From the IMG/VR virus record IMGVR_UViG_3300037067_006949, positions 32,001-96,000 of that record: DNA of 64,000 nt; one strand, 5' to 3'. How positions within the stretch are numbered: position 1 is the stretch's first letter; every line of letters begins with the position of its first letter. The position numbers and the translations under genes were made by a program. This document shows, piece after piece, positions 1,400 to 28,660 of the stretch. A model generated the notes under the pieces. The model was not told the DNA's origin. It did no database searches and saw only the letters and a program-made list of their open reading frames with translations. The DNA is from a virus (Duplodnaviria; Caudoviricetes).

Positions 1400-2491
1400 A
1401 TGTCGTCATTGATTGTAAAGATTTGTAAAGTTGAAAACGTTACCAAACATCCGAATGCTGATAGGCTGTCAATAGCTACTGTGGGCGGTTGGAATTGTAT
1501 TGTTGGTCTTGATCAATACAAGACTGGAGATAAGGTTGTTTTTATTCCTCCCGATTGTGTTATTCCAAATAACCTAATTGAGAAATATAATCTTGAATAT
1601 TTAAAACACAATGGTCGTACCGGAACGGTAAAGCTTCGCGGTTACATTTCTCAAGGTTTGATTTTGGATGTTCCAGAAGGCAGTTGGAAAGTGGGAGATG
1701 ACGTTGCTAATGCCATGGGCATTACAAAATATGAACAGCCAGAGCCCAAATTCTCAATTGGCGGCGCAAGACAATCAACCAAGAGGAAACTAAATCCGTT
1801 GTTTGATAAATACACTGATATCGAGAACATTAACAACTTCAATGACGTGTTTAAAGATGGTGATCTGGTGGTTGTAACCGAAAAAATCCATGGATGCAAT
1901 GGCAGATGGTCTTTGTTACCAATTGCATATAGTAACAAATTACCGTTGATTGAAAAGATTAAGTTTGTATGGAATAAATATATCCTAAAAAAGAAATTTG
2001 AATTTGTATATGGTAGCCATAACGTTCAGTTGACTAGTGATTCAAGAACTAAAAACTTTTATGGCGATGATGTTTGGGGAAAAATTGCGAAGAAATATGA
2101 TCTGGCAAATAAAATTTCAGAAAACACTATCGTTTATGGCGAAGTTTATGGAGAGGGAATTCAAGATTTGACTTATGGTTTGAAGGGCATTGACTTTGCA
2201 ATATTTGATATCAAACGTGATGGGATATATTTGAATTGGGAAGAGGTTGTAAATTATTGTATTCAGCATGGTCTGCCTAATGTTCCTATGATTTCCTGTA
2301 ATGTGAAATTTGATAAAAACAAATTGAAAGATTGGACTGACGGAAAATCGTTTGTTTATAAGGAACAGTTTCGTGAGGGGTGTGTCATTAAACCGATGAT
2401 TGAAGAAAATGATCCTAGAATTGGCAGAAAGATTTTGAAGAGTGTGAGCACAGAATATCTTACTCGCAAGGGTGGAACAGAATTTCAATAA
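1400..2491 (+). CDS. RNA ligase, DRB0094/Rnl5-like, with N-terminal tRNA-binding OB fold
   Basis: N-terminal HPNADRL; ligase motif I TEKIHG; YGEVYG, FDIK, EGCVIK, KILK. Confidence 0.85.
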   Translation: MSSLIVKICKVENVTKHPNADRLSIATVGGWNCIVGLDQYKTGDKVVFIPPDCVIPNNLIEKYNLEYLKHNGRTGTVKLRGYISQGLILDVPEGSWKVGDDVANAMGITKYEQPEPKFSIGGARQSTKRKLNPLFDKYTDIENINNFNDVFKDGDLVVVTEKIHGCNGRWSLLPIAYSNKLPLIEKIKFVWNKYILKKKFEFVYGSHNVQLTSDSRTKNFYGDDVWGKIAKKYDLANKISENTIVYGEVYGEGIQDLTYGLKGIDFAIFDIKRDGIYLNWEEVVNYCIQHGLPNVPMISCNVKFDKNKLKDWTDGKSFVYKEQFREGCVIKPMIEENDPRIGRKILKSVSTEYLTRKGGTEFQ

Positions 2492-2521
2492 AATGGTTAT
2501 TTTATGAGAAAAGGAGTTTGA

Positions 2522-2794
2522 ATGGGTAGTTATTGCGAAGTTAGACAGATTTATAGCGGAACAGCATTTATCAATGTGCAAGAAAATATTGATGGAAGGG
2601 TTATGGTTTGGGGGAGCACATATACAAATAAAACTGTTTTAGTTTTTAATGGGATTAATTTTTCGCTGTATCAATTTGAGAATGAGGAATTTTTTAAAGA
2701 GTGGTTGGAAAATAACAGATACAATAGTAATGAAATATTTTTGTTACAGTATGATAACGAATTACGAAAAAATGTTATCGTAAAAATTGATTAA
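2522..2794 (+). CDS. hypothetical protein (single-gene unit between sites 2487 and 2790)
   Basis: AAGGAG RBS; stop lies in left arm of site 2790. Confidence 0.65.
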   Translation: MGSYCEVRQIYSGTAFINVQENIDGRVMVWGSTYTNKTVLVFNGINFSLYQFENEEFFKEWLENNRYNSNEIFLLQYDNELRKNVIVKID

Positions 2795-2823
2795 AATAGT
2801 TCTTTTAATCAGACGGAGAATTT

Positions 2824-2973
2824 ATGAAAAAATATTATATATTTAGATGGAAGATAAATAAAATTATTCATGTTATTAAAATGATAATTAGCCCCGAATA
2901 TAGAAAGCAACAAAGGTCGTATATTATTCATCTTGAAGAATCAAGAAAAGAAATTGAAGAATTATTAAAATAA
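2824..2973 (+). CDS. small hypothetical protein (49 aa)
   Basis: GGAG RBS; fills the interval between sites 2790 and 2981; below ORF-track cutoff. Confidence 0.5.
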   Translation: MKKYYIFRWKINKIIHVIKMIISPEYRKQQRSYIIHLEESRKEIEELLK

Positions 2974-3017
2974 CTTTATGCTTAAAACAATTATTCTATG
3001 TAAGTTTTTGGTGACAA

Positions 3018-3197
3018 ATGAGAATAAAAAACAATAAAATGATAAAAAGAAAGACGACAATAAGAATAGATCAAACTTGTTCTGTTTGTCTAGGCGCTAT
3101 TATAAGGGGTTCAGACGTTTGGGTAATAAGTAATTTGCGTGGCAAAAATAGAAAATATTATCACATTGAATGCGGAGACAACATAAATGAGTTTTGA
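3018..3197 (+). CDS. small zinc-finger protein (CxxC...HxxC), paralog of 4802..5005
   Basis: Manual translation MRIKNNKMIKRKTTIRIDQTCSVC...KNRKYYHIECG. Confidence 0.6.
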   Translation: MRIKNNKMIKRKTTIRIDQTCSVCLGAIIRGSDVWVISNLRGKNRKYYHIECGDNINEF

Positions 3198-4305
3198 ACA
3201 ATACAATAATACAATTATTCAAGGAAATGTTTTAGAAGTATTAAGGTCTTTACCATCAAATTTTATAAATATGATTATCACCAGTCCTCCATATTGGGGA
3301 TTGCGAGATTATGGTCTGCCAGATGCAATTTGGGGCGGAAATCCTGATTGCAATCATAATTGGATTGAAAATGTGAGGCATCCTGCTGGCGGAATGGGGA
3401 GTAAGGGTGCTAATGTTGGCGCTAATAGGAACGATTTTGCCAACATGAGAGATCATGACGTGATCAGTAACACTTGTGTAAAATGTGGCGCATGGAAAGG
3501 ACAATTGGGGCAAGAACCAGACTTTCACGATTACATAAAGCATTTGGTTGAAATTTTCAATGAAGCTGGTAGAACCATGGTAGATGATGGCTCCCTATGG
3601 GTAAATTTGGGTGATAGTTATGCTGGAAGTAATCAAGGTTCTGGCACAGAAAAAATAAGCGATAAACAAAAAAGTAATCGTGGCACAAATTATATGAATA
3701 CCTTAAATCACAAAAGTATTTTATCCAAAATTGATGTTCGTTCTAAATCTCTCGTTGGCATTCCAGATCGTTTCAAAGTTGCTATGATTGATTCTGGATG
3801 GATTTGCCGTAACGAAATTATATGGCACAAGCCAAATCAAATGCCATCGTCCGTCAAAGATCGTTTTACTGTTGATTTTGAGAAATTTTATTTTTTCACT
3901 AAGAATGAAAAATATTATTTCGAACAACAGCTAGAAGAGAGCGAATGGGCGAAGATAGATAAACGGGCCGAAACTGGAGCAACTCTTGGTCAAAAAGGTT
4001 CTCAGGGAGGGTATGCACAAAACGAATCTGGAAAATACAGAAAAGACAAGATGCGGAATATGCGTTGTGTGTGGAGCATAAACACCAAACCGCTTAAAGA
4101 GGCTCATTTTGCCGTTTATCCAGAGGGATTGATTGAAACTCCAATTAAAGCTTGTTGCCCTAAAAATGGCATTGTTTTAGACCCATTTTTCGGTTCTGGA
4201 ACATCTGGATTGTCATCTAAGAAATTGGGCAGAAATTATATCGGAATTGATCTCAATCCTGATTATATTGAAATTGCAAGAAATAGAATAGATAAAGTCA
4301 CATAA
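3187..4305 (+). CDS. DNA amino-methyltransferase (N4-C/N6-A, beta class)
   Basis: TSPPY catalytic motif near N-terminus; DPFFGSGT SAM-binding motif near C-terminus. Confidence 0.9.
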   Translation: MSFEQYNNTIIQGNVLEVLRSLPSNFINMIITSPPYWGLRDYGLPDAIWGGNPDCNHNWIENVRHPAGGMGSKGANVGANRNDFANMRDHDVISNTCVKCGAWKGQLGQEPDFHDYIKHLVEIFNEAGRTMVDDGSLWVNLGDSYAGSNQGSGTEKISDKQKSNRGTNYMNTLNHKSILSKIDVRSKSLVGIPDRFKVAMIDSGWICRNEIIWHKPNQMPSSVKDRFTVDFEKFYFFTKNEKYYFEQQLEESEWAKIDKRAETGATLGQKGSQGGYAQNESGKYRKDKMRNMRCVWSINTKPLKEAHFAVYPEGLIETPIKACCPKNGIVLDPFFGSGTSGLSSKKLGRNYIGIDLNPDYIEIARNRIDKVT

Positions 4306-4338
4306 AATTCGAGTTTTAAGCAGATTTAAGGAGAAAAT

Positions 4339-4734
4339 ATGAAAATAGAAAAGAATTTTGTTACATTTTTAAGCCCAGGGACATTTTTTAGCGAAGAAAC
4401 AGTTAAAGAAATTGATTCTTGGGACGTAAATAAGGCGGTAGAAATGTCTAAAAATATTGTAGAACGTTATGATGCAACGCCTTATGCGTTTTATTTTACG
4501 ACTCGTGCTAGAGATGATTATGATCTTGATAGTAAACAGATTGATGAAAGCGTTATATATTATCTGGGCGGTGAAATTCGTAGTTTGAAAGACGTTGAAT
4601 TAGAGCTTAATCCAGACAATAATATTCTTATTGAAAATATGAGAAACAATGGTTACAAAAGAGTAATTACCAATTCTGGAAAGTGGAAGAGTGTGCATCC
4701 ACTTAAGGACGGCGATATTGTTTTACAGTATTAA
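4339..4734 (+). CDS. hypothetical protein
   Basis: AAGGAG RBS; between sites 4301 and 4741. Confidence 0.7.
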   Translation: MKIEKNFVTFLSPGTFFSEETVKEIDSWDVNKAVEMSKNIVERYDATPYAFYFTTRARDDYDLDSKQIDESVIYYLGGEIRSLKDVELELNPDNNILIENMRNNGYKRVITNSGKWKSVHPLKDGDIVLQY

Positions 4735-4801
4735 AATTTACATAAAATCTTAGTTTTAAGCATAACACATAGAATTTCAATTTTAAGTAAAGGTGGTTTT
4801 C

Positions 4802-5005
4802 ATGACTATCAAAAATGATAAAATTATTATTAGAAAAATTACGACTAGGGAAAACCAGTTCTGTAATTGGTGTGGAATGGAGATTCCAGAATACACAAAA
4901 GTCATTCTTGCTAGTGATAACAAGGGGAATAACAGAAAATATTATCACATTGAGTGTATAGAAGAAGAGATCAAAACAATCGAGTTCTATCATAAAAATC
5001 CTTGA
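4802..5005 (+). CDS. small zinc-finger protein (CxxC...HxxC), paralog of 3018..3197
   Basis: CNWC...NRKYYHIEC. Confidence 0.6.
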   Translation: MTIKNDKIIIRKITTRENQFCNWCGMEIPEYTKVILASDNKGNNRKYYHIECIEEEIKTIEFYHKNP

Positions 5006-5030
5006 CAGAATGATGGATGTGTGGTAAGAT
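5002..5030 (+). promoter_or_regulatory. sigma70-type promoter with extended -10
   Basis: TTGACA-17 nt-TAAGAT with TG upstream of -10. Confidence 0.75.
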
Positions 5031-5368
5031 TATAGACATTGGAGGGAGATATTATGTTCAAGATTCCTGGAGATTTCAAACCTAGTTTGTTACTGAAAAT
5101 ACTTTGGTATGTGAGCGATATGTTGCTGGTGATTATTGTTACTCTTTTCACACTATTTATGTTTGAATTGATTTTTGGAGTATAATTATGAAATACACAT
5201 CTAAACAATGTAAATATTGCAAAAACGTTTCAAAACTTGATAAAAATGGTAACGTTTACTATGCTGGTGGCATAATGCATAATTCCTGTTGGTATTGTGG
5301 AACGTCTTTTGGAAGTCAACATTGTTTAAAGTTGCTTAAAAATTAGATTTTATGTAAAAGGAGGAAAT

Positions 5369-5674: not shown

Positions 5675-5803
5675 AAGATTGCGAGGACAATAATGATTGC
5701 AAGAATAAAATCTTGGATGTATGATCAGATGTGGAAATTGATTAAATTTATAACAGAATGTATTTCTGAAGAATTACAATAAAAGACTTGTTTTAAGGAG
5801 AAT

Positions 5804-6118: not shown

Positions 6119-6376
6119 ATGGTTAGGAATTTGAGCATTACATGGGAAGACAAAAACAAGTGGATTGATATTGATGGTCGTAAAGGATTCAATATCCTTT
6201 ATAGTAGCGTACCAACGGGTTATGGTATGCAATGCAATTATGATGAAGCTGACGATTCTAAGGAGTATAAAATGGTGCTAGATGTTCTCAAAAATATTAG
6301 GGATAATGTTTCCAAATTAATCGAACTCAACGAAACTCCATTTGAAAAAGACACCGAAGGTTTGACTTACGAATAA
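6119..6376 (+). CDS. hypothetical protein
   Basis: GAGGAG RBS. Confidence 0.65.
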   Translation: MVRNLSITWEDKNKWIDIDGRKGFNILYSSVPTGYGMQCNYDEADDSKEYKMVLDVLKNIRDNVSKLIELNETPFEKDTEGLTYE

Positions 6377-6407
6377 AAATTACTTAAAATTGATCTTTTA
6401 AGCATAA

Positions 6408-6761
6408 ATGTTACATTCGCGCTTATCCAGACGAAAATATAAGCGCAGAAGGAACAGAGGAATGAAAATTCAATATTGCTTTCTATCATGGCTCGATTCT
6501 ATTTTGAGTGGATGGATACCCGTCAAACGAAGGCTACCGCGACATAAACATAAATCAGTAACGCTTGGCATACTTTGCTTCTGCTTACTTGATGGCTATT
6601 ATCCAGCCGTGTGTTTATTTTCTTCGGCAGATAAAAAGTGGTTCAGGGAAAATAGTCATGAAGATATTACAGAAAATGTAACTCACTGGAAGTCCTCTGT
6701 TACCCCTCCAATATTTTTCACTGAATGGATAATAAACAAGAGGAGGAACAACAATGAGTAA
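6408..6761 (+). CDS. hypothetical protein (start uncertain)
   Basis: ORF after site 6383. Confidence 0.5.
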   Translation: MLHSRLSRRKYKRRRNRGMKIQYCFLSWLDSILSGWIPVKRRLPRHKHKSVTLGILCFCLLDGYYPAVCLFSSADKKWFRENSHEDITENVTHWKSSVTPPIFFTEWIINKRRNNNE

Positions 6762-6990
6762 ACCAGAATCTTATCATCTTAATAATGGATGTTGGAACTG
6801 TAGGTTTAAAAGCAGAACTTCAATTGTATATGACACATTTTGCATATTCGGAAATGAATATGCAAAATTCTACGATTTGGACGACATAGAAGATGATGAT
6901 GAATGGGAGAAAAAAAGAAGATTAAATTCTGAATATACCAAAAGGTGTACGGCTAAACCATATGGGCATTGTGATGAGTGGAAAATTTAA
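6754..6990 (+). CDS. hypothetical Cys-rich protein
   Basis: AGGAGG RBS. Confidence 0.6.
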   Translation: MSKPESYHLNNGCWNCRFKSRTSIVYDTFCIFGNEYAKFYDLDDIEDDDEWEKKRRLNSEYTKRCTAKPYGHCDEWKI

Positions 6991-7002
6991 GGAGAATGAA
7001 TA

Positions 7003-7362
7003 ATGAGTTTTATACAAAAATTAATTGATGATACTAATAAAGGTGATTGGGATTTTTATTGGAAGTATAACGAAGGATCGGACACTTTTACTTTGAATAA
7101 ACCCAAACATTATTTGACTGGATTGAATTTTACAACCGCCAATAAAAGCAAATCTGTTATTTTTCCTAATGGGTCAGAATTGTTTACTGAGCAATTGGGC
7201 AATCTTGAAACCGCCGTTAGATCGTCTTTATTGAGTACGATGAATCAAAGCATTGAAATGTATTTGGCAAATAAAGAGTTGACTCCAGATCAAGAAGCAA
7301 TTTTGGCTGAACAAGAAAGCAAAAAGAATGCGGTGGAACCCAAAGCAAAAGTAGAAAAATAA
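7003..7362 (+). CDS. hypothetical protein
   Basis: AAGGAG RBS. Confidence 0.7.
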   Translation: MSFIQKLIDDTNKGDWDFYWKYNEGSDTFTLNKPKHYLTGLNFTTANKSKSVIFPNGSELFTEQLGNLETAVRSSLLSTMNQSIEMYLANKELTPDQEAILAEQESKKNAVEPKAKVEK

Positions 7363-7363
7363 T

Positions 7364-7696
7364 ATGCTAAAAGTGTATACGTCTCAATATAAATATGATG
7401 GCGAAAATCGCCTTGACATTACGGTAAAGACTGGTTTGCAGATGTTTGCGCCCACATGGGATATGGTAAATGGAGTAAAAAGAGAAGAATCATATTCTCA
7501 TGAGAAATATACCAAAGAATATTATGAAAAAATGCGCACGTCTTATAAAACGCATAGGCTGGAGTGGGATTGGCTTTTGAAACAGGATAGAGTGGTTCTT
7601 GTGTGTTTTTGTAAAGCCGGAGATTTTTGCCATAGATTACTTTTGGCTGATATATTAGTAAAATTGGGCGCAAAATATATAGGAGAAATTCCTTAA
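7364..7696 (+). CDS. DUF488-like protein
   Basis: APT motif and C-terminal LVCFC...FCHRLLLA pattern typical of DUF488 families. Confidence 0.6.
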   Translation: MLKVYTSQYKYDGENRLDITVKTGLQMFAPTWDMVNGVKREESYSHEKYTKEYYEKMRTSYKTHRLEWDWLLKQDRVVLVCFCKAGDFCHRLLLADILVKLGAKYIGEIP

Positions 7697-7892
7697 AAGG
7701 AACTTTATGTATAAAGAAGTCATAGTTTATTTAAAAGATGGCACTAAAGACCTTATTGATCCGGTAAACAGCAAAGAAGATGTAAAATATTATGATGATG
7801 TAATCATTATTAGTAACGGATATAATGATTATGAATATGACAAAAGCAAAGTTGATAAAATTGAAATTATAGATATTGTTTAGGGAGAAACT

Positions 7893-8483
7893 ATGCAAGA
7901 CAGAGAAGTAAAACATCCAAGCGAAATGACTAGAGAAGAATTGCTAGATTTAGTATGGCAAATGAGTTCTTCGGCTTTAGATTTGGCACAGCATCTTGAA
8001 AGTACGGAATGGTTAAAGGTTCAGTACAGGAAAAAATGCTATGAACGCGCTATTCAAATGGCTTGGCAAATTTGTAATGCATGGGAGTACGAGCGTAAAG
8101 AGGGCAATATGCAAATCGCATATTTCGGCGGAAACGGATTGGAAGTTATTAACGGAGATGTTTCTCAATTAGTAGATGGAACGTTGCCGACTTCTGCGCC
8201 TGATGAAGATAAAGAATTAGATTACAATGATTTTGAACAGTTATATATGGCATTAGATGGTTGGATTCCTTCTGAACAAGAGATAAAAGAACTTGATAAT
8301 CATTTCAAATATTTCAGAGAATTAACAGAAGATAAAGTGGGAAAAGATCACGTTGATGTAAAGGTTAAAACTTTGAATAGAATGGCGTATAAATCTGAAT
8401 TTATACACGACTTGGCCAAGGCGAGTAGAAAATTGTTAGACATGATCGACAAAGACGCATGGATACCAAAAACATTGGATTAA
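7893..8483 (+). CDS. hypothetical protein
   Basis: GGGAG RBS, 196 aa ORF. Confidence 0.7.
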   Translation: MQDREVKHPSEMTREELLDLVWQMSSSALDLAQHLESTEWLKVQYRKKCYERAIQMAWQICNAWEYERKEGNMQIAYFGGNGLEVINGDVSQLVDGTLPTSAPDEDKELDYNDFEQLYMALDGWIPSEQEIKELDNHFKYFRELTEDKVGKDHVDVKVKTLNRMAYKSEFIHDLAKASRKLLDMIDKDAWIPKTLD

Positions 8484-8496
8484 GAGGAGATTTATT

Positions 8497-8727
8497 TTGA
8501 TTAACGTTTGGGTTTTTATTATAGCATGTGTTATTTTTATTGGTATTTTAATCAGAGAATTTTTACACGACAAAGATATGGAAGACAAATATAAAGCCTT
8601 GCAAGAGGCTAACGAAGGTTTGATAATGGTTTTAGGATATTATTCCATGCGCTTTGGACAAATTACAACTGAAGACCTTACAAATATGGTAGGGATTGAG
8701 GCAGAAAAGTTGAGGTTAAAAAAATGA
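8497..8727 (+). CDS. small membrane protein
   Basis: N-terminal hydrophobic helix; GAGGAG RBS. Confidence 0.6.
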   Translation: MINVWVFIIACVIFIGILIREFLHDKDMEDKYKALQEANEGLIMVLGYYSMRFGQITTEDLTNMVGIEAEKLRLKK

Positions 8728-9326
8728 ATGGTGTAGACAAAATAAATACGTTCAAAAAAGAATTAGAATTTGTTAAAAATCCGCAAATCAAGTTGTTTGC
8801 AGAAAAGGCAATTGAAAGTTTGCCAGACTACTTTTTTACGATTCCTGCATCAAGTACGGGTAAATATCATCCGTCTTATGCGCTTGGCGACGGAGGCCTT
8901 GTTAGGCACACAATTGCAGCCGTAAGGATCGCTATCGAATTATTCAGAACTGGATTATGGAAATTCACCGACGATCATAAAGATTTGATTTTGGTTGGAC
9001 TTATTCTTCACGATGGATTCAAGTCTGGTAGCCCTCAAGAAAAGTATAGCAAAACAGATCATCCCAAAATCGTTTCATATGAAATTTCTCACAACGAATC
9101 ATTGAAAGGTTTGATTCCGCAAGAACAGATGGATTATTTGTTGAGTAACATAGCAACGCACATGGGACGTTGGGTTTTTGACTATAAAACCAAAGAAAAA
9201 GTTTTGGAAGAACCGAAAACTCCATCACAAATATTTACTCATCTTGCAGATTATCTTGCCAGTCGTAAGCAATTAGAATTCAATTTTGACGTAGAAATTT
9301 CAAAAGAGGACGAGCCAAAGGCATAA
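8724..9326 (+). CDS. HD-domain phosphohydrolase (YhaM-like HD domain)
   Basis: PAS..GKYHP...GGLVRHT, LHDGFK, HMG, HLADYLAS. Confidence 0.8.
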   Translation: MNGVDKINTFKKELEFVKNPQIKLFAEKAIESLPDYFFTIPASSTGKYHPSYALGDGGLVRHTIAAVRIAIELFRTGLWKFTDDHKDLILVGLILHDGFKSGSPQEKYSKTDHPKIVSYEISHNESLKGLIPQEQMDYLLSNIATHMGRWVFDYKTKEKVLEEPKTPSQIFTHLADYLASRKQLEFNFDVEISKEDEPKA

Positions 9327-9690: not shown

Positions 9691-9981
9691 ATGAGTGCTG
9701 ATACCGGAATTTATATTGCTAAATTTCCAGAAGGTTATAGAGTAACCGAAGTCGTTCAATGTATTGAAAATGTTTATTATTATAATCCTGGCACAAAAAG
9801 ACGTAAAAAAGAATTGGAAGCATATTTTGGCAATAGTGAAGTTTATCCGACGCGAGAACTTGCGTCTAGTAAGGCTTGGAAAATCTATGATGAGTACAAT
9901 CGTGAAGAAGAAGATTCTGGGATGGGATGCCCAATCGAATATGGCATTAGCTATATTGGTGAATATGAAAGTTTTGAATAA
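9691..9981 (+). CDS. hypothetical protein
   Basis: AAGGAG RBS; stop in left arm of site 9977. Confidence 0.7.
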   Translation: MSADTGIYIAKFPEGYRVTEVVQCIENVYYYNPGTKRRKKELEAYFGNSEVYPTRELASSKAWKIYDEYNREEEDSGMGCPIEYGISYIGEYESFE

Positions 9982-10011
9982 AACTGGCATTTTAAGCAAA
10001 TTTGGAGGATA

Positions 10012-11043
10012 ATGAATTATAACGAAATTATAAATACACATTATACAATTTTGGAATCTTTACCTGAAGAAGAAATTTATAATGTTGTTACAACTTTGAT
10101 TGAACATTATCGTGAATACGGATTTCCTTATTTTGAAATAGATAAAAATAAAATTAAAAAAGAATACAAATCGTTATCGAAATCTGATTCTTCAAAAATA
10201 GAATTGCCAAACAATGAATTGCAACAAGGAATGTTGGGATTGGCTACTTGTAACATGTTTCATCCAGAAATGTACTCTACGCATTGTAAAAGCGCCAAAT
10301 CTCCTATGGACGTATTTTTAGATGATAAGTTGTTTAGGGTTGCACTTATAAAAAGAATAAAATATAATGATCGTAATATCAATCCTTCATGTGTACGCAG
10401 AACCCTAACAGCTTTTGGTGCTCAAGCGGTTTCCAATTTCCGCCCATCTATTGCGAAATGGGTATATCAAAAATATTGTCTTTCAGGCGGTAAAGTTTTA
10501 GACCCATGCATGGGTTATGGAGGAAGATTGATGGGCGCATTTTGTTCTCATGTAAGCTCTTACACGGGGGTTGATCCTAACCAAGATGCGTTCAATGGTA
10601 ACAAAAATCTTTATCAAAGTTTGGTTGACTCTGCTGAAAATAACGTTTATCCAAAAATGAATTTTTATAATTTGCCATTTGAAGATTTTGAAGAAGTTGA
10701 AAAATATAATTTAGTTTTTACTTCGCCTCCATATTTTAATATTGAAAAATATTCTAATGAAGAAACTCAATCTTATTTACGTTACCCGTTATATTCAGAA
10801 TGGCGAGATAAATTTTTAAAGATTTTAATCAGTAAATCTTTTGAATACTTAGAGAATGGTGGCTATCTAGTTTTGAATGTTGGAAAGCCCGTTGATGAAG
10901 ACACAAAAGAAATCGGATCGAGCATTTTTGGAAGGCATCCAGAAGTTTATCACATGAGATTGAGTAAGCTTCTTGGTCAAGGAAATAAATCGGATGTAAG
11001 TCATAAAACGGAGCCAATATTTGTGTGGCAAAAACTTACATAA
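10012..11043 (+). CDS. DNA amino-methyltransferase (SAM motif before TSPPY)
   Basis: LDPCMGYGGR then FTSPPYF; bounded by sites 9977 and 11039. Confidence 0.85.
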   Translation: MNYNEIINTHYTILESLPEEEIYNVVTTLIEHYREYGFPYFEIDKNKIKKEYKSLSKSDSSKIELPNNELQQGMLGLATCNMFHPEMYSTHCKSAKSPMDVFLDDKLFRVALIKRIKYNDRNINPSCVRRTLTAFGAQAVSNFRPSIAKWVYQKYCLSGGKVLDPCMGYGGRLMGAFCSHVSSYTGVDPNQDAFNGNKNLYQSLVDSAENNVYPKMNFYNLPFEDFEEVEKYNLVFTSPPYFNIEKYSNEETQSYLRYPLYSEWRDKFLKILISKSFEYLENGGYLVLNVGKPVDEDTKEIGSSIFGRHPEVYHMRLSKLLGQGNKSDVSHKTEPIFVWQKLT

Positions 11044-11077
11044 AAATTACATTTTAAGTAAAAAATAAGGAGAAAAA

Positions 11078-11284
11078 ATGTTAAATATTACTTATGATTC
11101 AAATAGACCCATTGAAGAAGGGCAATATTATGTTGAACTTGCTTATTTTGTTGATGGCGGATATGGGGCGTCACATTTAAACAATTTGGGATATTGGTGC
11201 GATAAAGAACATTTAAAAGAGGCAATTGTAAAACCAGCACTAAAAGCTGTCAGCAATGACATTTTGGATAAAATTTTAGATTAA
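11078..11284 (+). CDS. hypothetical protein
   Basis: AAGGAG RBS; between sites 11039 and 11291. Confidence 0.65.
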   Translation: MLNITYDSNRPIEEGQYYVELAYFVDGGYGASHLNNLGYWCDKEHLKEAIVKPALKAVSNDILDKILD

Positions 11285-11333
11285 AAATCTAATAAAAGAA
11301 CGCTTTTATGTAAATTTTGAAGAGGAGGAATTA

Positions 11334-11966
11334 TTGAAGGGTGAAATTGTATTTTTGGAATATCAACAAGCAGTTGATTTTTTGTTACCCAGACATTATT
11401 CTGGTCGAACACCTTCAATTAGCCATGCGTTTGGTTGGCGCGTAAATAATGAATTAGTGGCAGTGTGTACTTTTGGGAAGCCCGCAAGCCCCCAATTGTG
11501 TTACGGTATTTGTGGTAAAGAATATCAGGATAAGGTATATGAATTAAATAGATTATGTAGGGTTGATGAATTAGAATTGCCATTGAGCAGTTTTGTGGCG
11601 GGGTGTTTGCGAAGATTGAGTGTTTATAATTACATTATTGTAAGTTATTCTGATACAGAAATGAATCACCATGGATATATTTATCAAGCATGTAATTTTT
11701 TATACACAGGAGCAACCAAAGAAAGAACAGATAAATATACCGAAGGCAACAAACATAGTAGACATTACAACAACGATGATCAAAATGGATTAAGAAAAAT
11801 TAGAAGTTCAAAACATAGATATGTATTTTTTGCCACAAGAAATAAAAAAATTAAGAAAGAATATATGGAACATTTAAATTATCCTATATTGCCATATCCT
11901 AAAGGTGATAATGATAATTATATTCTTGGAGAATATTTGGAGCCAAGGATCATAAAATCAACATGA
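11334..11966 (+). CDS. Mom-family (GNAT-fold) DNA adenine modification protein
   Basis: HYS, FGKPAS, ELNRL and VSYSD...HHGYIYQACNFLYTG, characteristic of phage Mu Mom homologs. Confidence 0.8.
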   Translation: MKGEIVFLEYQQAVDFLLPRHYSGRTPSISHAFGWRVNNELVAVCTFGKPASPQLCYGICGKEYQDKVYELNRLCRVDELELPLSSFVAGCLRRLSVYNYIIVSYSDTEMNHHGYIYQACNFLYTGATKERTDKYTEGNKHSRHYNNDDQNGLRKIRSSKHRYVFFATRNKKIKKEYMEHLNYPILPYPKGDNDNYILGEYLEPRIIKST

Positions 11967-11993
11967 AATATCAATTTTAAGTGAGGAAATGCT

Positions 11994-12191
11994 ATGGAAA
12001 AACCAGATTTTTATCTAGAAATACTAGAATTAACAAATGAATATGCTTATGCGATTATGGGCGGATTATCGTTTGGTTGGCATTGTGTCGCCAAAATGAA
12101 AGAAAATAAGGTTGAAGATGCGGAATGGGTTCAGGCACAACTATTGGGACTAATTAAAGATTGTGAAGGATTAAAAGTAAATTTTAAGTAA
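11994..12191 (+). CDS. hypothetical protein
   Basis: ORF after site 11962. Confidence 0.6.
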   Translation: MEKPDFYLEILELTNEYAYAIMGGLSFGWHCVAKMKENKVEDAEWVQAQLLGLIKDCEGLKVNFK

Positions 12192-12434: not shown

Positions 12435-12617
12435 ATGACAGACAGAGAGAAAATAAAAAAGGCTTTATCAAAAGCAGTTAAGGCTCTTTATTTTGATGAT
12501 AATAGTGATTATGGGGCTTTTCTTTGGGATATTGTTGGAATATTGGGTGGTGATGAAGCCTCTGATTTGTTAGGAGAAGATGATGAAAAGGCTTTTGAGA
12601 AATATTGTAAAGAATAA
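12435..12617 (+). CDS. hypothetical protein
   Basis: GAGG RBS. Confidence 0.6.
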   Translation: MTDREKIKKALSKAVKALYFDDNSDYGAFLWDIVGILGGDEASDLLGEDDEKAFEKYCKE

Positions 12618-12820
12618 ATCTGCTTAAAAGGTAAATTTTATTGATAAAAGGAGATATATCATGGGGATTATTTTTGATGATGATTCTGATGAAATTATGA
12701 GCTTTGAAGAATATTGTATGGAAGTATTGGATATCCCATACTATAACTTTCTCAACAAAGAAGAATGGGAAAGTTGCTATGAAAAGTACGAAAAATATTT
12801 AGAAAGAAATGTGGGAAAAG

Positions 12821-13832: not shown

Positions 13833-14027
13833 ATGGAACATTTTCAATGTGAATGTGGTAACGATGATTGCGATTTAGAAATCTCTGATCAAGATTACGC
13901 TAGTGCATTTAAGTTTTATTTAAATGAGGATGAAAAACTAATTATATTGAATTCCAAATGCAAACATTGGAAAGAATATAAATTTATCTTGGGCGGAAGA
14001 AATTTCATTTTGGTTAAGAAAAATTAG
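13833..14027 (+). CDS. hypothetical protein
   Basis: First ORF after promoter. Confidence 0.55.
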   Translation: MEHFQCECGNDDCDLEISDQDYASAFKFYLNEDEKLIILNSKCKHWKEYKFILGGRNFILVKKN

Positions 14028-14694: not shown

Positions 14695-14914
14695 CTGGAC
14701 AGAAAGATTATCAGTTTTAGATGAAATCAATTATTGCCCTGTGTGTGGAAAAAAGCTTATAAAAGAAAGATATCGCCATAGTTATTCTGTCAAGGATGGA
14801 TCGGAAGTTTATCGCACAGATGTAACATGTCCAAACAATAATTGGTTGCGCACACATTATCATGACATTTATGATGATGATGGCAATTCCTGCATATATT
14901 GGTCGATTGATTGA
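14687..14914 (+). CDS. zinc-ribbon protein
   Basis: YCPVCG; stop abuts site 14915. Confidence 0.6.
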   Translation: MTNWTERLSVLDEINYCPVCGKKLIKERYRHSYSVKDGSEVYRTDVTCPNNNWLRTHYHDIYDDDGNSCIYWSID

Positions 14915-14938
14915 CATAAAAGTAAAATTTTAAGCAAA

Positions 14939-16156: not shown

Positions 16157-16180
16157 CAGTTTTAAGTAGGTTTATAATAG

Positions 16181-16986: not shown

Positions 16987-17037
16987 ACGGTTTGATTACA
17001 TAAAAGAGAGATTCTATTAGGTTTTTAAGGAGAAACA

Positions 17038-17691: not shown

Positions 17692-17946
17692 ATGAAAAAA
17701 TATGAAATAATAGCCATTGTCAATAGCGAATATAAAATTTGTTTTAATATAGAATGTGATAATATTGAATATTATGAAAATACGCTTATTACTGATGGAG
17801 CGAAAATAATATTTAATAACAAAGAAAAGTTGGATGGTAATGTTGCAGTAGAAATTGAAAAAATTTATGCCACAGGCGAAAAAGAAATTAATTATAATAT
17901 TACGGCAAAAGATTTTTTTGTAGTTTCGAAACATGGGAAGGCCTAA
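17692..17946 (+). CDS. hypothetical protein
   Basis: GAGG RBS; stop overlaps site 17945. Confidence 0.6.
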   Translation: MKKYEIIAIVNSEYKICFNIECDNIEYYENTLITDGAKIIFNNKEKLDGNVAVEIEKIYATGEKEINYNITAKDFFVVSKHGKA

Positions 17947-17983
17947 TAAAATCCGACTTTCATGTAAAAATTAAGGAGATAAA

Positions 17984-18200: not shown

Positions 18201-18404
18201 ATGAATGAATCAGAGGCGTTGTTACGAAGCGCTTATCAAATCGCCAGTAGAAATGGTGAAGATACTAATTGGGAGGCGTTCAAGAATAGTCTAGAAAAAG
18301 AATTATTAGAAAGCAAGGGTGTAAAATATCCATGCGAGGACGAACAATTAGTATTAAGGGCAACATGCACCGCTAGGATTTATAAAATTTCTCCTAGTGA
18401 ATAA
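18201..18404 (+). CDS. hypothetical protein
   Basis: Stop abuts site 18405. Confidence 0.6.
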   Translation: MNESEALLRSAYQIASRNGEDTNWEAFKNSLEKELLESKGVKYPCEDEQLVLRATCTARIYKISPSE

Positions 18405-18675
18405 CATAAAATGAAGTTTTTAAGCATAGAATCATTCTTTCAAACAGGATTATACGAGATGTCTATGACAATAAGAGAGAATATTAATATTGGATCAACC
18501 TTTATGAAAAGTGGCAAGAAATACGTTGTCACTGGAATATGGTATGAAATGGGGGGGGATGTTCCATGGCGGTAGAATATGTAAAAGCCAATGATGACTA
18601 CGGATGTGCGTTTCCATTTAAGTTCGCAAGAGTTGTTTATAATGAAGATATTGAAAAATTAGAAATTATAAAATA

Positions 18676-18714: not shown

Positions 18715-18789
18715 GGTGAATGTGGCGAAATTGGCAAACGCGCCGCTCTGTGGATGCGGATATTGAGAGTTCAAGTCTCTTCATTCACC
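18715..18789 (+). tRNA. tRNA-His (GTG), encoded G-1, no encoded CCA
   Basis: Acceptor GTGAATG/CATTCAC plus G-1:C73; anticodon loop CTGTGGA; T arm GAGAG-TTCAAGT-CTCTT. Confidence 0.88.
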
Positions 18790-18790
18790 C

Positions 18791-18856: not shown

Positions 18857-19753
18857 ATGTTCAAAGAAATGCAAGAATATTTTGACACATTAGAAATTGA
18901 TAAATCACGCCATACAGTAAGAAGTTATCGTACGTCATTGAATGTTTTTGTTCGTTATTTTGACATTCAATCTGCTAATGATATTAATAAAATTACAGAG
19001 TCAAATATTCAAAGCTATTTGAATATGCTTGCTTCAAAATCAACTGCTAAAAATTCCAATACCGCAAAAGCAAGTGCTAATGCAAACTTTCGTGTAGTTA
19101 AAGCATTTTTGAATTGGATGAAAACCAAGGGCTATATAGAGTCTTCTCCGGTTGGAACGGTTCATAGATATAAAGAAGCCAAGCACATTGGCACGATTTT
19201 CAGCAAAGATGAACGCGATAGAATCATTATGTCAACAAAGAAACGCCCAAGCTTGCAAATGATGATGACACTGATGTTTTATACAGGACTTAGAGCAGAA
19301 GAATCAATAAATGTCAAGGTAAACGACATTCAAAATGGAGTATTGAAAGTTCATGGCAAGGGTAATAAGGAACGCGAATTGGCTCTTACGCCATTTGTTA
19401 TCGGCGTGATCAACAATTATTTGAAGAATAGAATGCGCGATTCAGAATATCTTATCACGTCAATGCGTGGTGGGCACCAAATAACCACTACTTCGGTTTT
19501 GGAAAGAGTCAAAGTGGCTTGTAAAATGGCTGAAATTGACGAAGATAAAATCAACAACATCGGTGCGCATTCAGTTAGACGTAGCTTTGCTTGTTTTCTT
19601 TTGATGGATGGGTGGTCAACATTTGCAATCCAGAAGGCTTTGGGGCACGAATCCCCAATGACTACTGATCGTTATGTAGAACCAGCAAAATCGCTAACCG
19701 CAACTAAAGCGCTTTTAGGTCAATCCGCACCATCATGGTATAAGGAGAATTAA
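18857..19753 (+). CDS. tyrosine recombinase (XerC/D-like, 298 aa)
   Basis: Full catalytic set: GLR(AEE), GKGNK, HSVRR, LGH, TDRY; N-terminal core-binding domain (TVRSY); too short for a lambda-type arm-binding domain. Confidence 0.92.
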   Translation: MFKEMQEYFDTLEIDKSRHTVRSYRTSLNVFVRYFDIQSANDINKITESNIQSYLNMLASKSTAKNSNTAKASANANFRVVKAFLNWMKTKGYIESSPVGTVHRYKEAKHIGTIFSKDERDRIIMSTKKRPSLQMMMTLMFYTGLRAEESINVKVNDIQNGVLKVHGKGNKERELALTPFVIGVINNYLKNRMRDSEYLITSMRGGHQITTTSVLERVKVACKMAEIDEDKINNIGAHSVRRSFACFLLMDGWSTFAIQKALGHESPMTTDRYVEPAKSLTATKALLGQSAPSWYKEN

Positions 19754-20607: not shown

Positions 20608-20642
20608 TTTAAATAAAATAGAGATTTTAAGGGAAAACAGTC

Positions 20643-20834: not shown

Positions 20835-20867
20835 TCAGAATAAAATAACAATTTTAAGTGAGGAAAA

Positions 20868-21179
20868 ATGAGTAAACAGAATTTGGAAGACTTACTTCTT
20901 TATGCGGATTTTGCAGACAAAAATACTAATGGTGTTTTTGGTATATCTTCAAAATGGCTTCGAGAAATCGTTGAAGAGATTAGGGGATTGCGAAAAGAAT
21001 CTGAACTTGATTATAGTGATATGCGTTCATTCCAAGCGAAATATATTGAATCTGATCAGCAAAAAAGAAGTCTTGAAAGTGCTCTGACCAAAATTGCATT
21101 TCTAAAAAATGAATGGGACGATCCACAAGATTTTATCAATGATTTACAAAATATTGCAAAAGAATCTTTGATAAAATGA
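20868..21179 (+). CDS. hypothetical protein
   Basis: Between sites 20839 and 21170. Confidence 0.65.
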   Translation: MSKQNLEDLLLYADFADKNTNGVFGISSKWLREIVEEIRGLRKESELDYSDMRSFQAKYIESDQQKRSLESALTKIAFLKNEWDDPQDFINDLQNIAKESLIK

Positions 21180-21203
21180 GAATTTTAAGCAAGAGGAGAA
21201 TAT

Positions 21204-21416: not shown

Positions 21417-21461
21417 TTTCACATAGAATTTATGTTTTAAGCAGATTTTAAGGAGGTACAT

Positions 21462-22440: not shown

Positions 22441-22808
22441 TGAAAATATTTTTGATTTGTCCGGTAAGAAATGCAACAGAAAACCAAAAGAAAAGAATGA
22501 TAGAATATATTGAAGAACTTGAATCCGAAGGCAACAAAGTCCACTATCCGGCAAGAGACACAAAGCAGGAAGATTCAACTGGCGGTTGGAACATCTGTAC
22601 TACAAACAAAAACGCAATCTTGGAATCAGATGAAGTTCATATCTTTTGGGACGATAAGAGCACAGGTAGCCTATTTGATCTAGGAGTTGCATTTGGTGCA
22701 CACAAGAGGCTTGTGGTGGTCAATCCAGAGGCAATAGATACATCTAACACAAAATCTTTCCATAACGTCATTAATTATTGGAATAATTTGAACTCGCTTA
22801 AAAACTAG
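22440..22808 (+). CDS. nucleoside 2-deoxyribosyltransferase-like protein
   Basis: KIFLICP, HYPARD, AILESDEV, STGSLFDLGVAFG. Confidence 0.65.
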   Translation: MKIFLICPVRNATENQKKRMIEYIEELESEGNKVHYPARDTKQEDSTGGWNICTTNKNAILESDEVHIFWDDKSTGSLFDLGVAFGAHKRLVVVNPEAIDTSNTKSFHNVINYWNNLNSLKN

Positions 22809-23025
22809 ATTTTAAGTAAAATGGAGATAGATATTGCAGCAAACAACTGGTCGTTTATATAAAATGCCGTTGCCAAAATTGAACTCAGATATGATAAATG
22901 AATTAATCAACATTTCCCAAAAATTGTGCCATACGGATATATCTTTGGGCGACATTGAAGGGGCGGATGAAGACGGTTATTATAAAGATTTATTTTTGTG
23001 CTTTTACATTTAAAGGAGAAATGAA

Positions 23026-23701: not shown

Positions 23702-23739
23702 ATTGACATAAAAAGTATATTTTAAGCAGAAAGGATTAT

Positions 23740-24227: not shown

Positions 24228-24244
24228 TATATTTAATAGTACGC

Positions 24245-24351: not shown

Positions 24352-24360
24352 ATATCCATA

Positions 24361-24382: not shown

Positions 24383-24398
24383 AAGCATCCATCTAAAT

Positions 24399-24472: not shown

Positions 24473-24494
24473 CAATAACAATAAGGATAATGAT

Positions 24495-25124: not shown

Positions 25125-25150
25125 CATGAAATTGTATTTTTATGTAAGTT

Positions 25151-25232: not shown

Positions 25233-25237
25233 AAATT

Positions 25238-25307
25238 GCTCCGATAGTTTAAGGGAAGAACCTACTTTTACTAGTAGAGATGGGCGTTCGGTTGCGCTCT
25301 CGGAGCA
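25238..25307 (+). tRNA. degenerate tRNA (Val-TAC-like)
   Basis: Acceptor GCTCCGA/TCGGAGC; CTACT/AGTAG stem with 6-nt loop TTTACT; 8-nt T loop. Confidence 0.55.
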
Positions 25308-25350
25308 AATTGAATAAAATCATACTTTTAAGTAAAAATCAAGGACATAA

Positions 25351-25506: not shown

Positions 25507-25545
25507 ATTTATTATTTTAAACAAAAAAAATAAAAAAGGAGAAAT

Positions 25546-26394: not shown

Positions 26395-26426
26395 TATAGA
26401 ATGCACATTTTAAGTTAAGGATTAAC

Positions 26427-27002
26427 ATGATTATTAAAGTATTAGAAGAACATGGATATCCAAGCGCAGCCCTAGGATTTTCTTTATCATACAATAGCGG
26501 ACTTGAAAGAGCAATGGAACTTTTGCCTAAATTTGCCTTTGGTAAATCTGGAGAAACAAAATTCCTTGAATCAATATATGTTTGGCTGGATGTAACTGCG
26601 CCGATTTTCATGTGGTCTGAAATGGATACATATCGTATCTCCACGAAACAGTCGGAAAGCACTATGCACACATTGACGAAACGTGTGTTGACACATGAAG
26701 ACTTTGAATGTCCAATATCAGATAACCTCTTGGAAGAGTTAAATCACGCAATCCATATGTACAAAACATGTCCAGCCAGCGAAACATTTGCAGAAGAAAA
26801 AAGAAAAATATTTCTTTTGATAAAAAATAATCTTCCATCTGGATTTCTTCAGAGAAGAATTTGGGTTATAAATTATCGAACTCTTCAAAATATTTATAAT
26901 CAGCGTCATGATCATAAACTTCCACAATGGCGTTATTTTTGCGAACAAATACTTGTTCAGGTAGAACATCCAGAATTTATACAGGAAAATTATGTGGCTT
27001 AG
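26427..27002 (+). CDS. ThyX-fold-like protein (divergent)
   Basis: KFLESI.VWLDV.AP...E.DTYR....QSESTMH and LP.G....R....NYRTL..IY.QR..HKL.QW; lacks canonical RHR motif. Confidence 0.5.
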   Translation: MIIKVLEEHGYPSAALGFSLSYNSGLERAMELLPKFAFGKSGETKFLESIYVWLDVTAPIFMWSEMDTYRISTKQSESTMHTLTKRVLTHEDFECPISDNLLEELNHAIHMYKTCPASETFAEEKRKIFLLIKNNLPSGFLQRRIWVINYRTLQNIYNQRHDHKLPQWRYFCEQILVQVEHPEFIQENYVA

Positions 27003-27231
27003 TTGGATCGCATCTGGACTCACACTGTTAGGAAACATTATTCTTATAGGCAATAAAAGTTGGAAATCATTCGTGATCTTTGCAATCGGTAATGCTATGT
27101 TTTCATATTACTGGTTTATAAGGGAAGAATGGGCAACTTTTGTTTTAGTGTTGGTGTTTCTTGCCCAAAATGTTTGGGGTTTGATCAAATGGAGAAATGA
27201 GTCTAAAAGGAGAGGAGCAATCAAAATATAG
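26992..27231 (+). CDS. small 3-TM membrane protein (PnuC-like half transporter?)
   Basis: Three hydrophobic helices; NVWGLIKW C-terminus. Confidence 0.5.
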   Translation: MWLSWIASGLTLLGNIILIGNKSWKSFVIFAIGNAMFSYYWFIREEWATFVLVLVFLAQNVWGLIKWRNESKRRGAIKI

Positions 27232-27305
27232 AAATTATATAGGTTATTATTGTTGAAATTTGTAGTTGAATATTATATTTTGAAATTATAAAGGAGAAAC
27301 AAAGT

Positions 27306-28247
27306 ATGGCTGAATTTTTAAAAGCAACAAAGGGCAAGAAACCTGTTCGATTAGTTCTAGGAGGCCCGTCTGGTTCAGGAAAAACATATACCGCATTAAC
27401 GTTTGCAAAATACTTACAATCCATTACTGGTAAACCTACCGCGGCAATTGACACAGAACATTATCGTATGAGCTTGTATGCTGACAAATTTGATTTCGAT
27501 GTAAACAATTGGGAGCCACCTTTTGATCCGCGAGAATTGATTAAAACTATTCATGACGTAGAAAAGGCGGGATATGGTCAATTAATTGTAGACAGCAGTA
27601 CACACTTCTATAATTCTACTGGTGGCTTATTGGAGATTGTTCAGGATGCCGCGAAACAAAAATATGGTGGCAATCAATACGCAGGATGGGCTGTAGGGAC
27701 TCCAATTCAGGACGCTTTGATTGACGCAATTATTCGATCCCCTATTCATATGATCTTTTGTACTCGCGCAAAACAGGCATATGTTGAATCGGAAAAAAAT
27801 GGAAGAAAAACATATGAAAAGGCAGGAATGGAGCTTCAGCAAAGAGACGGTTGGGAATTTGATTTTGATTTCAGTTTGATTATGGATATGGACAATAATG
27901 CGAACGTTGCAAAAGGCATGGGGTATGTTCCAACCGGAGCGTACATCAAGAAACCAGACGAAAAAGCTATTGAGAAAATTATGAAATCAATCAGCGAAAA
28001 CACAACTGAAGAAGTGGCTATTCCTCCAGTGAAGTTTGTTGCGCCAAAACCAGAAGAGGTTTTGAAAGCAACTAAGACGAGCGTTGTTGAAAAATGTGTT
28101 TCTTTGGGCGGAAGCAAAAATGAAGCATTAATGGAAATTGTAAAATCATTTGAGCCATCTGGAAACCCAAACAAAATCAAGGACATCAATGTTCTTAATG
28201 AATTATTGGTTAAGTTATCAGAACTGGAAAAGAAAGGAATTGAATAA
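27306..28247 (+). CDS. Sak4-like AAA ATPase / single-strand annealing protein
   Basis: Walker A GPSGSGKT, IDTE, IVDSSTH; adjacent to SSB. Confidence 0.8.
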   Translation: MAEFLKATKGKKPVRLVLGGPSGSGKTYTALTFAKYLQSITGKPTAAIDTEHYRMSLYADKFDFDVNNWEPPFDPRELIKTIHDVEKAGYGQLIVDSSTHFYNSTGGLLEIVQDAAKQKYGGNQYAGWAVGTPIQDALIDAIIRSPIHMIFCTRAKQAYVESEKNGRKTYEKAGMELQQRDGWEFDFDFSLIMDMDNNANVAKGMGYVPTGAYIKKPDEKAIEKIMKSISENTTEEVAIPPVKFVAPKPEEVLKATKTSVVEKCVSLGGSKNEALMEIVKSFEPSGNPNKIKDINVLNELLVKLSELEKKGIE

Positions 28248-28633
28248 TGTCATTAAATATTAGTGATACACAAAGGGTTTCAGTTTGGACTATCGAAGAT
28301 CGTGAAAAGTTCGCTCTTGTTCAAATGTCTAGCTCTCGTAAAGATAAACAATCTGGAGAATACAAGAACACAAGTTGGGCATATGTTCGTTTTGTCGGAA
28401 CGGCGTATAGCAAAATTGCAACCGATGGTCTTGTACATGGGGATCGCATTGTTCTGAAGGGCGCAACCATTTCACAAGAACCATACTTGGTCGATGGGGT
28501 AAAAACATATCCGAAATATCCGCAAATCGTCGTTTTTAATTGGGAACATTATGTGCCCGATGGAACACAAGCGCCAAGCGGTATTGATGCGCCTCCACAA
28601 ATTGAGGAAGAAGACGAAGGGCTTCCGTTTTAA
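28247..28633 (+). CDS. ssb: single-stranded DNA-binding protein
   Basis: OB-fold-like body; acidic tail EEEDEGLPF. Confidence 0.75.
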   Translation: MSLNISDTQRVSVWTIEDREKFALVQMSSSRKDKQSGEYKNTSWAYVRFVGTAYSKIATDGLVHGDRIVLKGATISQEPYLVDGVKTYPKYPQIVVFNWEHYVPDGTQAPSGIDAPPQIEEEDEGLPF

Positions 28634-28660
28634 CATAAAATAATGCTTTTAAGTGAAACA

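Follow-up and report, generated by a model that had tools for sequence, protein, structure and literature searches.

The DNA analysed here (the window, 64,000 nucleotides) corresponds to bases 32001–96000 of the 125,426-bp IMG/VR virus record IMGVR_UViG_3300037067_006949, which has 34.6% G+C and is 91% complete. About 50 copies of a 16-base palindrome, TAAAA-N6-TTTTA, lie with strict spacing of the arms between the small genes of this phage, and the same core is found in its relatives. Within the phage family, it is highly probable that these sites are joints between gene modules and crossover points; for the present phage, homology makes the same role likely, with rather less assurance. The best reading, to which we give an even chance, is that they are protein-bound module joints serving as crossover points, possibly by way of a phage tyrosine recombinase. 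No description of this class of sites was found in the SPbeta literature searched.

Architecture and Abundance of the Sites

When cores were defined genome-wide as TRRAA-N6-TTYYA with at most one transition, 59 were counted in the 125-kb genome, against 6.9 ± 2.7 expected under a first-order Markov model. Strict cores with six central bases occur 24 times in the window, and each of the other spacings from N3 to N10 is found 0–3 times; such rigid spacing is compatible with a dimer that recognises duplex DNA. The copies of this phage yield the consensus aa.t..CATAAAAt....aTTTTAAGya, with aCATAAAA-N6-TTTTAAGya as a shorter form, and a second, fully symmetric class of sites ends in TTTTATG. The core of 16 bp grows to 22–28 bp with its flanks, its stem consists of 5 bp of A/T, and the conserved arms measure about 8 bp in this phage, lengthening to about 11 bp at most in BUCT082 and SPbeta. 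Judged by the asymmetry of the flanks, 34 of 54 sites point along the direction of the genes, 4 are opposed to it (window positions 2983, 5337 and 12625, and genome position 22700), and 16 are fully symmetric. A site-like copy with a 5-bp centre, TAAAA-GTAAA-TTTTAAG, stands at window positions 12172–12186, at the end of the open reading frame (ORF) 11994–12191, and is the sole N5 copy at a gene junction.

Sites Across the Phage Family

The TAAAA-N6-TTTTA core is a shared feature of SPbeta-like phages. Strict cores number 37 in BUCT082 (2.6 expected), 16 in SPbeta (50 kb; 0.8 expected), 10 in phi3T (50 kb; 0.8 expected) and 20 in the IMG/VR relative G001 (4 by expectation or control). Clostridium phage c-st (AP008983.1) has 31 copies of the core against 7 of a reversed control pattern, and the site class therefore extends beyond Bacillus phages. 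The relatives found in IMG/VR through their primase-helicase, at only 63–72% amino-acid identity, also carry sites at the ends of their ORFs; in L134, which belongs to G001, stop codons lie seven times in the arm and five times flush with it. One 343-amino-acid methylase-like gene is bounded by sites on both sides in the present phage and in L134, with different neighbours, and its L134 ortholog (59% amino-acid identity) likewise ends on the TAA of a site arm.

Sites as Joints in Mosaic Genomes

The evidence that these sites are joints comes from comparisons between relatives. SPbeta, BUCT082 and phi3T have common centres in colinear order, with one or both flanks unrelated. In ungapped alignments, identity begins exactly at T0 of the core at SPbeta 33688 and 45563, and it stops a few bases past the core at SPbeta 7148 and 36074, while at SPbeta 19424, 37599, 38400 and 45129 it is confined to an island of 17–24 bp between two unrelated flanks. 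The centre AGACTG occurs in SPbeta, BUCT082 and phi3T with three different pairs of flanks. Where a 68-nucleotide (nt) flank is conserved between two phages, the partner site has the same centre in 22 cases and a different one in 2, and it is decayed or absent in 5. Between SPbeta and BUCT082, 3 of 17 ends of BLAST high-scoring segment pairs fall within 12 nt of a site, where 0.35 would be expected; the sites are enriched at breakpoints, but they are not the sole breakpoints.

The same picture is seen in L131 and L132, two further relatives of the present phage. Three successive centres (TACATA, TGCATC and TCTTCG) are kept in order at 18 of 18 bases, shared coding DNA is 71–81% identical, and the genes between the conserved sites are unrelated. 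One slot of L131 contains an ORF of 154 amino acids; the corresponding slot of L132 is empty, with the cores bearing TGCATC and TCTTCG only 11 nt apart. Single instances of gain or loss are found in the SPbeta group as well: phi3T is without yoqH-yoqI, the missing stretch beginning precisely at the left arm of one SPbeta site and ending at the centre of the following one, and yoqG of SPbeta is flanked by two copies of the TTGAAG site, one decayed and one intact. L131 (1399–1488) and L132 (1–89) also share a conserved non-coding block of about 90 nt with a tRNA-like T-arm (GGTTCAAGTCC), which ARAGORN does not call as a transfer RNA (tRNA) and which is followed by a site within about 10 nt in both.

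Placement Relative to Genes and Stop Codons

The median distance from a site is 2 nt to the upstream stop codon and 20 nt to the next start codon, and a Shine–Dalgarno-like motif follows within 22 nt in 38 of 54 sites (9.5 expected). The order of elements is right arm, ribosome-binding site (RBS), ORF, stop codon and left arm. A sequence-only reading of this DNA had proposed that ORF ends are fused to the sites, and all 15 overlaps that it cited are exact. Seven ORFs terminate on the left arm's own T-R-R triplet (strands are given in brackets where one was assigned): TAA at 2489–2504 (symmetric, after the RNA-ligase gene, ORF 1400–2491), 2792–2807 (ORF 2522–2794), 4303–4318 (plus; after a DNA methylase gene, ORF 3187–4305), 9979–9994 (plus; ORF 9691–9981) and 11041–11056 (plus; after the 343-amino-acid methylase-like gene), TGA at the TGAAA variant 11964–11979 (plus; after a Mom-like gene, ORF 11334–11966), and likewise an arm stop at 5780–5795 (plus), whose upstream ORF has 29 amino acids and whose right arm, at 5791, merges with the Shine–Dalgarno sequence (TTTTAAGGAG). 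In five further cases, the stop is flush with the 7-nt arm, ending two bases before TAAAA: the TGA ending at 14914 abuts the arm CATAAAA of site 14917–14932 (plus), and stops end at 18404 (site 18407–18422, plus), 25124 (site 25127–25142, a TGAAA variant), 26394 (site 26397–26412, plus, a TAGAA variant) and 28633 (site 28636–28651, plus). In the remaining three, the stop forms the first centre triplet: TGA 145–147 in the core TAAAA-TGAACC-TTTTA at 140–155 (plus; upstream gap of −8), TAA 16154–16156 at 16149–16164 (plus; after a methylase gene) and TGA 21177–21179 at 21172–21187 (plus).

These overlaps are, with high likelihood, ordinary genome economy and a by-product of compact spacing, because the T-R-R of the left arm is always a stop triplet, the three frames are used equally, and the junctions are compact. 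The observation that positions 3–5 of the 7-nt left arm are always TAA, TAG or TGA is true, yet it is what a TAAAA arm with tolerance for single A-to-G transitions entails; in the plus-strand array, one of six G variants (that at 11964) actually serves as a stop. The frames of upstream ORFs relative to the site are distributed 19:15:11, with no preference (chi-square, P = 0.34). Stops fall at the arm triplet (offset 0) in 12 cases, at the TGA or TAA of a (T)TGACA/TAACA flank (offset −5) in 7 and at the first centre triplet (offset +5) in 4, so that each frame terminates at the first stop that the site region offers. The median gap is 39 nt at junctions that contain a site and 10 nt at those without one, a difference of about the site itself. 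Overlap beyond what compaction and the built-in stop predict was thus not borne out. Where there is large slack, the site hugs either gene end: in long spacers, it lies against the stop in 8, against the start in 5 and against neither in 2–3, and the stop-side bias in roomy spacers (slack of at least 25 nt) is not significant (12 versus 17).

A tRNA-like gene at 25237–25308 (plus; called by ARAGORN), which has no stop codon, is nevertheless followed by a site starting 6 nt past its end, and it is therefore the end of the functional unit, rather than the stop codon, that is fused to the sites. The proposal that the units are minimal modules of RBS, ORF and site survives in part: the layout is real and relatives show joints between modules, while the stop overlap offered as evidence for it is a by-product.

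Candidate Recombinases and Proposed Mechanism

Two tyrosine recombinases are encoded by the phage. An Xer-like protein of 298 amino acids, one of the two candidate site binders, is encoded at 18857–19753 (plus) behind its own sigmaA-type promoters. It matches the Pfam family Phage_integrase (4.7e-27) together with SAM_1, and its alignment with XerA (5hxy; E = 1.5e-18) places R, K, HxxR, H and Y in register; an ortholog of its gene is present in the early array of G001, and it is weakly similar to YopP. In SPbeta-like phages, yopP has been reported as a core gene without a known role (PMC10516654). The second gene (PF00589) lies at 3133–4158 on the whole 125-kb phage genome (L009), and all site-bearing phages examined, c-st among them, have a member of its family. 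Both PF00589 proteins keep R, K, HxxR, H/W and Y and are, as far as these residues indicate, predicted to be catalytically complete.

Related genomes would preferentially cross over at the copies of the palindrome that stand at module joints; the upstream module would take the left arm with it, and the RBS and ORF that come after the site would take the right arm. The likeliest agent would be a phage-encoded tyrosine recombinase that binds the two arms as a dimer and cuts at the edges of the 6-bp centre. Modules would be trimmed until the ORF meets the first stop of the site, the flanks or the first centre triplet supplying the other frames. That a tyrosine recombinase is the agent seems to us possible rather than probable, and binding by a protein and cutting by such a recombinase are both inferred. 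The link of such an enzyme to the sites is only inferential because co-occurrence is not decisive, the uniqueness of the centres is a trend only, and two arm-level crossovers could suffice. A stronger form, in which the array would be a natural system of recombinase-mediated cassette exchange with about 50 lox- or dif-like sites that have common arms and their own 6-bp centres, appears rather unlikely.

A number of observations weigh against recombinase-served joints. About 13 of the 17 homology breakpoints between SPbeta and BUCT082 lie away from sites. Phages that have no sites can also encode relatives of the Xer-like protein (TR-TP1, E = 1e-20), and each of the 7 phages examined has some tyrosine recombinase, so co-occurrence singles out none. 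No duplicate pairs of centres were found against 2.5 expected, which is a trend and not significant (P = 0.08), and centre remnants or footprints of old insertions in this genome are not beyond chance (35 against 49 expected). No close relative was found in the collections searched, hence no exchange event is visible in this genome. Islands with a conserved centre could be made by two independent arm-level crossovers with no matching of addresses, and breakpoints at the sites could arise without a dedicated enzyme if any conserved intergenic sequence supports short-homology recombination, as the promoter early stem-loops (PeSLs) of T4 do. Finally, co-orientation with transcription (34:4) is not demanded by recombination and hints at a link to expression.

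Alternative Explanations

Short-homology recombination at a regulatory site, of the kind of PeSLs or stoperators, is a serious rival to module joints run by a recombinase. Its regulatory form, in which the site is a stoperator-type operator where a phage protein, possibly of recombinase fold (MrpR, YopP), blocks or modulates read-through and exchange is incidental, is not likely, though it carries some weight. The stoperators of L5 and other Cluster A mycobacteriophages likewise occur in dozens of copies in short intergenic spaces, with an orientation that tracks transcription (PMC9283540), and the sites of the present phage overlap stops and starts with a 34:4 orientation. MrpR of SPbeta, a proven repressor with a recombinase fold, binds the SPbeta repeated element (SPBRE), itself a repeated palindrome in the same phage family, and yopP has been reported among core genes that are probably transcriptionally active in lysogeny (PMC10516654); in addition, the aimR and yorE promoters of SPbeta, both under MrpR control, have sites immediately upstream. 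A neutral operator spacer, however, does not predict 6-bp centres conserved between phages across unrelated flanks, as at the mosaic joints; stoperators are asymmetric 13-mers bound by a monomeric helix-turn-helix repressor, unlike this palindrome, 16 of whose 54 copies are fully symmetric; and neither a repressor nor an MrpR-like protein was identified in this phage. SPBRE (AAATACAAAnAATATGTATA, about 10 copies at promoters) is also a different sequence, separate from the more numerous TAAAA-N6-TTTTA: the motif derived from the upstream regions of MrpR-bound genes is an unrelated palindrome, and the sites do not fit its 15-bp form matching AAATACAAAnAATATGTAT, so identity with SPBRE was rejected. 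An HU-like protein was rejected as a site binder as well, as it travels with YonO and not with the sites.

A role in transcription was also considered in the form of a phage-specific promoter, with TAAAAT acting as a −10-like element for the host polymerase together with a phage factor, or with the whole 22-bp site as a T7-like promoter of the YonO-like RNA polymerase; the close packing of promoters against upstream genes would then account for the overlapping stops. In favour, the motif is strongly conserved, shares the orientation of the genes and stands 11–26 nt upstream of start codons; the first gene of the plus-strand array (g14436) has a site ahead of it, and another site lies near the start of the minus-strand late array; hardly any sites occur in the left part of the genome, where the YonO-like polymerase is encoded; a search for sigma factor domains in this phage found none, and intrinsic terminators are not in excess. 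We nevertheless regard the promoter explanation as improbable, and promoters of the YonO-like polymerase in particular as unlikely. YonO of SPbeta drives the late genes from one start upstream of yonK (PMC5467207), where there is no site, while SPbeta's own sites lie in its YonO-independent early region, and the YonO-encoding phages PMBT24 and TR-TP1 are without the motif. A −35 element is lacking, and about 40% of sites depart from TAAAAT at its sixth base. Reversed sites number 4 and symmetric ones 16, and the conservation of centres is left unexplained. Canonical sigmaA promoters exist separately in the array: TTGACA-17-TGnTAnnAT promoters with TG-extended −10 elements stand apart from the sites at 5002, 13789, 18676, 18791, 23546 and 24199, and the sites, having no −35/−10 pair at 16–18-bp spacing, were rejected as canonical sigmaA promoters. 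They were rejected as terminators too, as they have no G+C-rich stem and terminator-like matches are at chance level; the promoter motif of other phages with single-chain RNA polymerases (TTCGCGAA) is absent from this phage. At the RNA level, a weak 3′-terminal A/U hairpin on each message, serving processing, stability or translational coupling, is very improbable. Most sites do lie between stop and RBS on the sense strand, and the arm variants of this phage, mostly A-to-G changes in the 5′ arm (9 versus 2), would keep G-U pairs; yet the stem consists of five A-U pairs only, reversed copies persist, and some SPbeta sites lie after terminators and upstream of promoters, hence outside the transcripts of the next gene. 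The arms, moreover, never covary, which disfavours a hairpin, be it in RNA or as a DNA cruciform: TGAAA is found with TTTTA, and TAAAA with TTTCA or TTCTA, while in L134 both arms vary and pairing-breaking T-to-C changes in the right arm are as common as left-arm variants. Least credible of all is a true integron-like system of promoterless cassettes with folded, single-stranded attC-like sites and an IntI-like integrase, the likeness on which the sequence-only reading had leaned and which the anatomy of the sites largely refutes. The minimal layout of RBS, ORF and site, with stops often inside the site and an RBS after it, does resemble attC arrays, and in one indel between SPbeta and phi3T the left arm of a site is connected to the centre of a different one, as one-strand exchange would do. 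On the other hand, attC sites are imperfect palindromes of 57–141 bp with R″, L″, L′ and R′ boxes that fold as single strands, and IntI lies beside attI and the cassette promoter Pc. Here, the sites are double-strand-type palindromes that, at 16–28 bp and with a centre of strictly 6 bp, are too short for folding; an attI/Pc platform is absent; the recombinase gene lies mid-array behind its own promoters; its best solved match is XerA, and IntI4 is reached only at E = 7.6e-6 over 76 residues; and no same-centre duplicates occur.

Resemblance to Known Recombination Sites

In Xer/dif core sites, a 6-bp centre separates two inverted arms that end in AA/TT, and the whole measures about 28 bp. The sites described here are similar in having inverted arms with these ends and a 6-bp centre (within the range of 6–8 bp), and they would also reach about 28 bp if abutting tandems set the full length; the element itself encodes a tyrosine recombinase predicted to be catalytically complete. 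The pdif modules of Acinetobacter plasmids are small gene modules with alternating site orientation, served by the host XerC/D. As in pdif, the present sites flank small gene modules and an Xer-type recombinase is encoded nearby; unlike pdif, they are mostly co-oriented (34:4), number about 50 per genome and are carried by a phage, and their link to a recombinase is putative. PeSL cassettes of T4-type phages (Arbiol et al. 2010, PMC2839356; Comeau et al. 2014, PMC4122927) are similar in that short conserved intergenic elements flank small non-essential ORFs in hyperplastic regions and that the edges of insertions, deletions and replacements fall at the element, which for the present sites was seen in relatives only (L131/L132 and SPbeta/BUCT082/phi3T). 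They differ in that a PeSL comprises a sigma70 promoter and a terminator stem-loop and recombines by the homology of near-identical copies, whereas the sites described here are without promoter or terminator anatomy and are palindromes with a 16-bp core, strict N6 and their own centre in each copy.

Genome Context and Further Sites in the Window

The phage is, on its predicted gene content, a distant SPbeta-like phage, as judged by the several SPbeta-type functions that it encodes. These include a YonO-like single-subunit RNA polymerase of 917 amino acids (genome positions 6170–8923, minus), 35% identical to that of BUCT082 and 27% to YonO of the SPbeta group, and an adjoining HU-family protein (5022–5333, minus) that recalls yonO/yonN of SPbeta. 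A PolIII-alpha polymerase, a primase-helicase and a ribonucleotide reductase are encoded as well. Genes run leftward at 0.3–13.5 kb, rightward at 14.4–84.8 kb and leftward again at 84.8–125 kb, the last block containing lysis, tail and head genes; the rightward block has about 125–140 small genes in its first 46 kb (124 adjacent gene pairs in the gene call). There is no close relative among deposited phages, and IMG/VR searches by recombinase, metagenome contigs and exact-address scans gave nothing closer than the relatives named above, the contigs yielding one uninformative fragment of 1.7 kb. The 0.9-kb gene-free divergent control region ahead of the first array site contains a perfect direct repeat of 54 bp (genome positions 13893–13946 and 13971–14024), and an inverted repeat of 73 nt is found at genome positions 15174–15244.

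The other sites of the window are distributed as follows. The minus-oriented site at 2983–2998, reversed relative to the genes, lies 9 nt past the stop of ORF 2824–2973. Two tandem sites at 4743–4758 (plus; 8 nt past ORF 4339–4734) and 4770–4785 (plus; a TAGAA variant) are separated by 11 nt between cores with no gene between them, an "empty slot" with the same 11-nt gap as in L132. Paralogous small zinc-ribbon-like ORFs with the common motif RKYYHIEC are found at 3018–3197 and 4793–5005, each directly 3′ of a site, the one before the first of them (2983) having the reversed orientation. Further reversed sites stand at 5337–5352 (minus; stop TAG 5344–5346 within the centre) and 12625–12640 (minus; 7 nt past ORF 12435–12617). 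Sites with no assigned strand lie at 6385–6400 and 11293–11308, each 8 nt past an ORF (6119–6376 and 11078–11284, respectively), at 17001–17016 (right arm TTCTA), at 17947–17962 (right arm TTTCA), where the stop of ORF 17692–17946 abuts T0, and at 22799–22814, where the stop TAG falls within the centre (upstream gap of −10); those at 2489, 2792 and 25127 belong to the same group. Plus-oriented sites are found at 20614–20629, 20841–20856 and 21424–21439 (a TAGAA variant), and the one at 23709–23724 stands beside a start codon with no close upstream ORF (upstream gap of 159, downstream gap of 15).

Ahead of the Xer-like gene, a strong sigmaA-type promoter (18676; TTGACA-17-TAATAT with TG) directly precedes a tRNA-His gene (18716–18790), and a second one (18791) directly precedes the recombinase gene. 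The tRNA-like gene at 25237–25308 begins 94 nt after the site at 25127 and is abutted at its 3′ end by the plus-oriented site at 25315–25330; ARAGORN assigns it no definite identity and an odd two-base anticodon. The last site of the array (28636–28651) comes 63 nt before the start of the primase-helicase gene (28715), with an 11-bp G+C-rich hairpin at 28661–28686 in the interval. A minus-oriented site at 55110–55125 is found among the minus-strand late genes, 6 nt past the stop of the minus ORF 55132–56319.

Significance for the Phage Family

The genomes of mosaic phages are joined cleanly at gene boundaries, and the molecular cause of such joints is seldom known. Here, a short, strictly built palindrome marks the joints across a family that includes the model phage SPbeta, which makes its role testable in Bacillus subtilis with existing genetics. 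If the cassette-exchange reading were true, modules would be swapped or inserted between co-infecting SPbeta-like phages at matching "addresses", with each phage keeping its own genes. If a recombinase does run the sites, they would represent a new route for viral trade in accessory genes, including those of defence and counter-defence, and would also provide a ready-made set of orthogonal recombination sites.

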